The position numbers and the translations under genes were made by a program. Below the pieces are notes generated by a model, which made no database searches, had not been told where the DNA came from, and was given only the letters and a program-made list of their open reading frames with translations. Source: Escherichia coli (GTDB lineage Bacteria > Pseudomonadota > Gammaproteobacteria > Enterobacterales > Enterobacteriaceae). Taken from it: a stretch of 64,000 nt of DNA. The DNA is taken from NCBI RefSeq assembly GCF_024502345.1, contig NZ_JALDNN010000001.1; one strand, written 5' to 3'. Below are positions 49,921 to 50,730 of the stretch, piece by piece (position 1 is the first letter of the stretch; each line of letters opens with the position of its first letter).

Positions 49921-50730
49921 CTAGAAAGAGCCGAGTTCAGAAATCGGTATGTTGAGGAGATGGCTGTTTTTGCTGATAAAGTATTCGAGACTACGGGTTG
50001 TTTCTCCATTCAATGACTTCTCTGCAACAGGCCTGTCTGTATCTTTAATGTGATCTTCTCCTCTGATCTCACTTGTAAAGTCGGGATACAAGACACGAGA
50101 CAGGACCATATTTGAGATTTTTACTTTTTTAAATTTTGCCCAAATCAATAGATCCATCATTGGGATAATATTGTAATCGACAAGTTTTCTTATCTTTGCC
50201 AGTCCAATTTTTTCTGTTTTTACTGGCTCAATTTCATATTCTTTCCTGAGAATGGGTAGCATCGTTTGTAAGGCTGTTATAATTTCTTCATCGCTAGACA
50301 TTCCTAAATCAAATGAAACATACATCTTGCTGCTATTTTGGTTAAGAAAAAAGTCTCTCATAGTTTTTGTTATTGGTTTATTTTTCAACTCTTTTTTGAA
50401 ATCACCATTTTCTTCAAAAAAATCCATGCTAAACATTATTAACTTGTTCTCTAATTTTTTTATATCACCAAAGCTAACCTGAGCAACATGTCTTTGGCCC
50501 TTGCCAAAATGGCCATGATTATTATCTTGTCTGCTTAAAATAGGATTACCTTCAAGGATAGACCTTAAATTTTGATTATCATCTTCCCATCCAAAATTTA
50601 CACTGTCGAAAATCGCTTCTCTAAAGGCAAGCTCGGTATGCAGTTCTTTGATTGTAAGTGATTTTAACTGCTCATAGCTTTCGAGACTAAACCAGATTTT
50701 TAATTCTTCATAAGGGCTTACTACTTTCAT
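49921..50730 (-). CDS. Hypothetical protein (island cargo between integrase and alpA remnant)
   Basis: 269-aa ORF, visibly AT-rich; no recognisable motif. Confidence 0.55.
   Translation of the reverse strand: MKVVSPYEELKIWFSLESYEQLKSLTIKELHTELAFREAIFDSVNFGWEDDNQNLRSILEGNPILSRQDNNHGHFGKGQRHVAQVSFGDIKKLENKLIMFSMDFFEENGDFKKELKNKPITKTMRDFFLNQNSSKMYVSFDLGMSSDEEIITALQTMLPILRKEYEIEPVKTEKIGLAKIRKLVDYNIIPMMDLLIWAKFKKVKISNMVLSRVLYPDFTSEIRGEDHIKDTDRPVAEKSLNGETTRSLEYFISKNSHLLNIPISELGSF

Follow-up and report, generated by a model that had tools for sequence, protein, structure and literature searches.

AlpA proteins form the excision and induction switch of phage satellites, mobilisable islands and pathogenicity islands in Enterobacterales, and the control of alpA itself is an acknowledged gap. 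For Gram-negative phage-inducible chromosomal islands (PICIs), one account knows of no master repressor and describes the helper-phage route to alpA activation as unknown (PMC6092414). In the element ICEKp258.2, ORF28 (KPNJ2_RS09320) encodes a 287-aa protein of the DUF6387 family and lies directly upstream of, and co-directional with, ORF27, which encodes an AlpA-family recombination directionality factor (RDF; PMC10763509, Table 1). The pair sits at the island end opposite the integrase gene (int), and the supplements of that paper contain no per-ORF conservation data (PMC10763509). ORF28 is the closest described instance of the gene analysed here, which occupies positions 49,921–50,730 on the minus strand of a 64,000-nucleotide stretch of Escherichia coli DNA (contig NZ_JALDNN010000001.1 of assembly GCF_024502345.1), referred to below as the window. 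Both proteins belong to the same Pfam family (PF19924) and are equally uncharacterised. In the window, the gene lies between an integrase gene and alpA, next to the tRNA gene leuX. The analysis indicates that DUF6387 is very probably a conserved backbone component of the int-alpA module and not cargo. The reading favoured here, with a probability of about 0.4, is that it forms the third component of a tRNA-targeting int-DUF6387-alpA module, common to many Gammaproteobacterial integrative elements, and has a regulatory role in the alpA switch.

The open reading frame (ORF) runs from ATG to TAG over 269 codons, encoding 269 aa, and is preceded by a Shine-Dalgarno (SD) sequence, GGAGGG, at 50,735–50,740, five bases ahead of the ATG. 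Comparison with six orthologues gives a ratio of nonsynonymous to synonymous substitution rates (Ka/Ks) of 0.05–0.17, which denotes purifying selection and, being comparable to the values for int (0.03–0.07) and alpA (0.02–0.20), confirms that this is a real gene. A preliminary description of the window had called the gene AT-rich and placed it between integrase and alpA; both points are borne out, as its GC content is 34% (0.33–0.37 along the gene, against 0.45 for int and 0.49 for the window) and it is flanked by int at 50,842–52,092 and an alpA reading frame at 49,590–49,754. The same description had found no recognisable motif in the product, and this does not stand, since residues 1–249 match positions 1–258 of the 258-position Pfam DUF6387 model (E = 2e-76). 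Orthologues carry the RefSeq label "DUF6387 family protein". The adjoining gene, and not DUF6387 itself, is the one matched by the AlpA hidden Markov model (HMM).

The window protein is a typical representative of its family, which is catalogued but has not been studied. The family comprises 667 representative clusters at 50% identity, almost all of 260–330 aa, and appears to be single-domain, with 133 of 133 diverse members matching no other Pfam family. It is near-absent from phage genomes, where two matches were obtained, neither from a complete phage genome record, and a search of plasmid records found it to be rare there. Searches of NCBIfam and sequence-profile searches of the PDB gave no match for the window protein, and the literature search on DUF6387 returned mentions in gene tables only.

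Linkage to alpA was surveyed in 56 distinct DUF6387 loci, which were drawn from complete E. coli genomes, plasmid records, metagenome and genome contigs (by exact protein look-up), a collection of one genome per species, and IMG/VR, and were scored with HMMs for DUF6387, AlpA and integrase. The genome-collection search, which used a narrow family alignment, reached Enterobacterales only. In 51 of the 52 informative loci (51 of the 56 in total, four of which end before alpA could be seen), DUF6387 is followed on its own strand by an AlpA-family gene, and the gap between the two genes is at most 300 bp in 42 loci. The only informative locus without a downstream alpA, L026 (9,983–11,323), has an H-NS-like 133-aa gene directly after DUF6387; a further DUF6387 locus (L041) is found 30 kb away on the same Trabulsiella contig. 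The position of int is less constant. In 26 loci, DUF6387 directly follows an integrase gene of the same orientation, with an overlap of int stop and DUF6387 start in seven, and 19 loci have no integrase nearby, some of these having a tRNA-Ser gene directly upstream of DUF6387. In the excised circle, int, DUF6387 and alpA would be contiguous in both architectures.

The elements carrying the DUF6387-alpA pair are diverse and include relaxase-bearing mobilisable islands, primase islands, EARL-like backbones with H-NS and DUF4756, and satellites of 15–17 kb with Ant, primase and major head protein. The last group (L061–L066, L002 and L050) consists of capsid-forming, PICI-like satellites with the gene order int (overlapping DUF6387 by 4 bp), DUF6387, AlpA-type excisionase/regulator, Ant antirepressor, primase and major head protein. 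One of these, L002, was deposited as a circular Klebsiella "plasmid" of 16,971 bp.

Retention among islands with this leuX integrase bears on the idea, implied by the preliminary description, that DUF6387 is plain single-gene accessory cargo in a variable int-alpA interval. The gene is AT-rich and uncharacterised and lies in an interval that accepts cargo, as this explanation would have it. Among 66 complete E. coli genomes with a full-length integrase of this leuX family, however, at least 62 carry DUF6387: 25 have the int-DUF6387-alpA block of the window type, 13 have a C5-methyltransferase and a restriction enzyme between int and DUF6387, and 24 have a 289-aa DUF6387 allele. No unrelated gene was seen in the DUF6387 slot among the 66, and an alpA-anchored match at another chromosomal site again showed int-DUF6387-alpA. 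Furthermore, both the occurrence of the gene and its place are conserved between element types, within Enterobacterales and outside them; it is kept when other cargo enters on either side, and the linkage to alpA persists even with int at the opposite island end. Plain cargo is therefore a very improbable explanation.

Large DUF6387-alpA gaps hold inserted genes, several of which were identified by PADLOC. These include Septu PtuA/PtuB in L022 (11,129–12,786), a CBASS cyclase with a 2TM effector in L041 (12,477–14,337), the same cassette being present in L030, and Olokun OloA/OloB in L037 (11,151–15,602), the last beside what appears, on our own reading, to be a MazEF-like pair. Between int and DUF6387, type II restriction-modification cargo is found in L015 (7,708–9,859) and L046 (7,339–9,490). 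Cargo insertion replaces the first ~100–130 bp after the DUF6387 stop, and the last 40–65 bp before the alpA start remain joined to alpA. The preliminary description had pointed to the int-alpA interval as a place where anti-phage systems gather, and in related islands it does contain such systems; the further suggestion that this gene is one of them fares less well, and the survey of the interval in homologous islands found DUF6387 constant with cargo inserted beside it. DUF6387 is the fixed flank of two insertion sites and not an occupant. As such, it is a useful anchor for mining new defence systems, and also a warning to guilt-by-association screens, in which this backbone gene would score as "defence-associated".

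Several other occupants of these sites were noted, their functional labels coming from sequence reading. They comprise a four-gene cluster in L019 (10,925–14,098) that would encode a radical-SAM-like protein, an apparent exonuclease, an ATPase and an aldo-keto-reductase; a 443-aa protein beside CBASS (L041 10,972–12,303; L030 10,977–12,308); a pair of 312 and 173 aa in L034 (10,888–12,328); a 208-aa Zn-ribbon-like membrane protein in L020 (1,762–2,388); a 661-aa protein with a weak LmuA match in L023 (10,846–12,831); and a 141-aa protein in L053 (4,272–4,697). PADLOC gave no or only weak matches for those scanned, namely the L019 radical-SAM-like protein and the 443-aa, 312-aa and 661-aa proteins. 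Several hotspot occupants without a PADLOC match could be new defence genes.

A different explanation is that the DUF6387 protein has a defence, exclusion or counter-defence function of its own and has become hard-wired into the module, acting as a sensor-effector against phages or competing elements, with a variable middle that tracks its targets. It sits exactly at the insertion sites of Septu, CBASS, Olokun and restriction-modification systems, it is AT-rich relative to its neighbours, and it has a counterpart in PHROG 23422, a function-unknown phrog that the window protein matches. Against this, the window protein had no family at E ≤ 10 among the 5027 models of PADLOC-DB v2.0.0, and the search works, since this library gave strong scores to the cargo flanking DUF6387 in relatives. 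As a rule, defence genes are patchy in occurrence, can be replaced and turn up in many contexts, whereas DUF6387 is linked to alpA and retained as described above, other defence systems being added beside it and not swapped for it; its scarcity in phage genomes and on plasmids also argues against this explanation. Nothing was found that supports anti-phage activity of DUF6387 itself, and we consider such a role rather unlikely, even after the allelic diversity and expression layout described below, which speak in its favour, are taken into account.

The structure of the protein gives further clues. An AlphaFold2 model computed from a 133-sequence alignment is all-helical, with a predicted local distance difference test score of 90.2 and a predicted template modelling score of 0.86. 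Foldseek searches of AFDB50 with this model returned only uncharacterised DUF6387 members, mostly from Enterobacterales, with the others from Aeromonas, Alteromonas, Photobacterium and Acinetobacter. No characterised structural relative emerged, and the only resemblance to other proteins was a weak one to helix-turn-helix (HTH) domains, given by a small helical subdomain. The profile and structure searches proposed in the preliminary description were thus productive in identifying the Pfam family, and yielded neither a PADLOC model nor a characterised structural relative. A reading of the segment PMMDLLIWAK as a PD-(D/E)xK nuclease motif was ruled out, since the fold is all-helical.

In the 133-member alignment, the conserved core consists of residues 1–40 and 140–240, and residues 41–135 are hypervariable. 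The window protein carries the conserved family positions W13-F14..Y19..R37 and D147..L158..R162..D193..W197. Conserved residues are mostly W, F, Y, L and P, plus single R, D and K; no recognisable catalytic motif was found among them and there is no second domain, which are two more points against a defence function.

DUF6387 also behaves as an allelic cassette. Across loci, its identity correlates with that of AlpA (Spearman 0.71) and with that of Int (0.63), and leuX islands whose integrases are 90–97% identical carry DUF6387 proteins only 30–33% identical. Between the window and two loci, L032 and L034, the tRNA and int are 92–93% identical, homology ends 13 nt before the int stop, none is found over DUF6387 and both intergenic regions, and it resumes ~25 nt into alpA. 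In the pair L047 and L048, the tRNA, int, DUF6387, the intergenic region and the first ~80 nt of alpA are 92–99% identical, and homology collapses within alpA. Each DUF6387 allele moves together with the promoter, leader and first codons of alpA. Synonymous divergence between the window and L018 amounts to a Ks of 2.4 for DUF6387 and 0.44 for int, with low Ka/Ks. Taken together, the variants are old alleles, each under purifying selection, that have been shuffled between backbones by recombination. Such a pattern is known from phage immunity regions and SaPI (Staphylococcus aureus pathogenicity island) stl genes, and also from arms-race genes; deeply diverged alleles shuffled between near-identical integrases accordingly fit the defence explanation as well.

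The same data bear on the possibility that DUF6387 is an accessory recombination factor working with Int (and AlpA) at the att sites, for example as an architectural or directionality cofactor. The stop-start overlap with int in seven loci suggests translational coupling and stoichiometric co-production, the three genes would adjoin one another in the excised circle, the identity of DUF6387 tracks that of both Int and AlpA, and weak HTH-like subdomain matches were obtained. However, alleles 30% identical work beside near-identical integrases at the same leuX, where a specific cofactor should vary less, and the protein is acidic. In addition, the ROD21, ICEKp258.2 and PICI publications, in the parts available, explain excision by Int and AlpA alone, DUF6387 having been no part of those tests; a literature search found no characterisation of SEN1999, of ROD21. 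A recombination factor is accordingly a distinctly improbable explanation.

The arrangement of the control regions is in keeping with separate expression of DUF6387 and alpA. Just 3' of the int stop, a hairpin at 50,787–50,816 (minus strand) is formed by an inverted repeat with 14-nt arms that are 93% complementary. It is retained in L016 and L018 with G.U-compatible changes and has no U-tract; because the changes keep G.U pairing, it points to an RNA-level element and not a DNA operator, and it may act as an RNA 3' hairpin or attenuator. A second, terminator-like hairpin (GGGGAGG...CTTCCCC) lies 3' of the DUF6387 stop at 49,865–49,896 (minus strand). G+C-rich hairpins occupy the equivalent site in most homologous loci, some with a T-run; a simple terminator scan did not call the window hairpin as a canonical terminator. 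This hairpin would divide DUF6387 from the alpA transcription unit, and the separate expression that it suggests would also suit a defence gene.

Downstream of this hairpin, the alpA control region (49,755–49,814, minus strand) contains TTCATA and TAATAT separated by 18 nt, assigned by eye as a plausible sigma-70 promoter of alpA, and a leader that can pair with the GGAGG ribosome-binding site. Across six species, mean column identity over the DUF6387-alpA intergenic region is 89%. When leaders were folded one by one with shuffled controls, the alpA SD sequence was sequestered in 23 of 35 alpA leaders, compared with 15.7 ± 2.8 in shuffles, and the corresponding count for DUF6387 leaders was 8 of 37. 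RNAalifold applied to a MAFFT alignment of the alpA leaders found no structure, the stems being out of register, and Rfam has no family for the leader. The SD-pairing hairpin suggests translational control of alpA. The arrangement as a whole suggests two expression units, with int and DUF6387 on at rest and alpA controlled separately and tightly.

Some further details of these regions were recorded. The alpA leader hairpin (49,755–49,795 in the window) occurs at the same position in L008, L013, L027, L035, L038, L042, L050–L053 and others; its stem sequence varies between loci, a TCGAAACAA loop recurs, and the window stem is weakened by one substitution. A CU-rich tract at 49,839–49,858, 3' of the DUF6387 stop, is complementary at 17 of 20 positions to the gene's own ribosome-binding site and start (50,724–50,743). 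The chance expectation for such 17/20 pairs is ~0.1, and only the anti-SD part is kept in L016 and L018.

These observations can be combined into a model in which DUF6387 controls the life cycle of the element. While the element rests in the chromosome, DUF6387 would be produced together with int or in parallel to it, and transcription would stop at the hairpin behind DUF6387. The protein would then act in trans on the alpA-dependent excision and induction switch, either holding it off or setting the signal that triggers it. In this scheme, the conserved N- and C-terminal core, with its small HTH-like subdomain, would carry the activity common to the family, and the hypervariable middle would carry allele specificity. 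A life-cycle control protein is favoured because the linkage to alpA is obligate wherever int lies, because DUF6387 is co-transferred with the alpA control region and has the expression layout described above, because a conserved core is combined with a variable middle and a weakly HTH-like subdomain, and because, for Gram-negative PICIs, no repressor of alpA and no route to its induction are on record (PMC6092414). That DUF6387 is specifically the regulator or sensor of the alpA switch is a tentative proposal. A bolder version, which we regard as unlikely, is that DUF6387 fills the place of the missing master regulator or sensor in alpA-controlled Gram-negative elements and keeps the alpA switch off during integration, and that its alleles set induction or immunity specificities as Stl does, with an unrelated fold; the middle region would in that case recognise a specific helper-phage or helper-plasmid signal.

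Several points weigh against a regulatory role. The well-studied E. coli PICIs work through alpA, and the available text on them mentions no DUF6387-like gene (PMC6092414), so DUF6387 would not be universally required. In three loci (L040, L043 and L044, from Symbiopectobacterium, Prodigiosinella and Phytobacter), DUF6387 is split by frameshifts beside an intact alpA, and therefore it can decay independently of alpA. The candidate "recognition" helix is hydrophobic, the protein is acidic (pI 5.9, with a family median of 5.4), and binding to DNA, RNA or protein is predicted at most. Besides the two hairpins and the arm-type repeats described below, a search for operator-like repeats around DUF6387 gave chance-level results only. 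Unlike the divergently transcribed stl/rpr and immR, DUF6387 is co-directional with alpA. Co-transfer with the alpA control region could be mere adjacency, and AT-richness, old allelic diversity and a position at a defence hotspot are equally typical of an arms-race gene.

In the window, leuX, int, DUF6387 and alpA are all on the minus strand. The integration site is leuX, the gene for tRNA-Leu(CAA), at 52,282–52,366 (ARAGORN and Rfam tRNA), and its chromosomal flank (ahr, yjgR, lptG) is the same as in E. coli genomes. The attL-side spacer between leuX and int (52,093–52,281, minus strand) contains GTCTAC-type direct repeats at 52,184–52,209 and 52,247–52,272, which are probably arm-type sites for Int or AlpA, and it probably also holds the int promoter region. 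The 416-aa tyrosine integrase (50,842–52,092) was identified as an ORF with an NCBIfam integrase domain and has a P4-type arm-binding architecture; it is annotated as arm-type in an intact relative, ET210, and homologous loci show the Pfam domains Arm-DNA-bind_3/Phage_int_M/Phage_integrase. The comparison with P4-like elements made in the preliminary description holds for this type of integrase. It does not extend to gene content, since intact relatives show a type I restriction-modification system and a relaxase in place of annotated P4 satellite genes; in ET210, judged from annotation, none of the P4 core genes psu, delta, sid and alpha is present, and ankyrin proteins accompany the relaxase and the restriction-modification genes.

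The module is crippled in the window. Only the first 51 codons of alpA are left (49,601–49,754, minus strand; AlpA HMM E = 7e-25 for the ORF at 49,590–49,754), where the ET210 orthologue has a full length of 68 aa. The gene is cut after codon 51 by an IS5-family insertion sequence (IS) of 1057 bp (48,544–49,600, plus strand; NCBIfam IS5 transposase, E = 6e-107) whose ends are perfect inverted repeats of 18 bp, alpA sequence giving way to the repeat at 49,600/49,601. A second, inverted copy at 32,277–33,333 is 100% identical to the first, and no 9-bp target-site duplication was found at either copy. The terminal repeats of both copies read GGCTTTGTTGAATAAATC. The island backbone past alpA is lost or rearranged, and since no second leuX 3' end occurs within the window, the island there is a rearranged remnant. 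The stretches 44,128–45,254 and 45,318–48,506 hold frameshifted fragments of hsdM, the type I restriction-modification methylase gene, and beside them a gene for an autotransporter of the AIDA/MisL type, 1062 aa long and containing a (PDN)n repeat tract; in ET210, the equivalent island end carries a complete hsdMSR.

As far as was found, there is no earlier description of a third conserved gene locked to alpA, with exchangeable alleles and with defence insertion sites alongside. Given the gap in the control of alpA, DUF6387 suggests itself as a candidate for that role and lends itself readily to testing. In one PICI that has been studied, int and alpA are separated by EcCIMP1_002; its product is reported to be small, about a tenth of the size of UvrB, and is unlikely to be a DUF6387 protein.

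Comparison with known systems places the module close to, and apart from, several of them. EARL-like backbones on plasmids have the same DUF6387-alpA pair as ICEKp258.2, and DUF6387 of the window is ~28–33% identical to EARL-type members. EARL (ROD21-like) islands are defined by an Asn-tRNA site, int and RDF genes at opposite ends, a type IV pilus, TraD/MOBQ and an H-NS backbone. In them the pair is opposite int and the target is Asn-tRNA, whereas in the window int is directly upstream and the site is leuX; the window element, at tRNA-Leu(CAA) with int beside DUF6387 and an ET210 relative without pilus and H-NS genes, is not an EARL. DUF6387 is no RDF either, as AlpA/Xis RDFs are basic winged-helix proteins of 60–100 aa, and the window protein has 269 aa and the acidic pI noted above. 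The P4 hotspot lies between psu and int. The defence hotspots of P4-like satellites and PICIs are likewise integrase-proximal, tRNA-integrated and filled with varied defence systems, and DUF6387 would correspond to the conserved flank of such a hotspot.

Stl proteins are similar in size to DUF6387, all-helical and highly variable between elements, and they sense different helper-phage proteins. In ICEBs1, the control genes immR and immA are co-transcribed with int when the element is quiescent, and excision requires the activation of a separate operon headed by xis. As described for PICIs, Stl/Rpr of SaPIs and Gram-positive PICIs, like DUF6387, are situated between int and the operon for excision and induction and share the direction of int, and accessory genes are likewise inserted between int and the regulator (PMC6092414). 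DUF6387 shares this position, following int on the same strand in the 26 loci with an adjacent integrase and being separated from alpA by a hairpin. It differs from Stl/Rpr in having no detectable sequence or whole-fold similarity to them and in that alpA always lies downstream on the same strand, without divergent transcription. Similarly, ImmR and ImmA are unrelated to DUF6387, which has no Xre-type HTH or HEXXH motif, and their gene order and orientation are different. DUF6387 may be functionally analogous to Stl/Rpr or ImmR/ImmA without being related to either.

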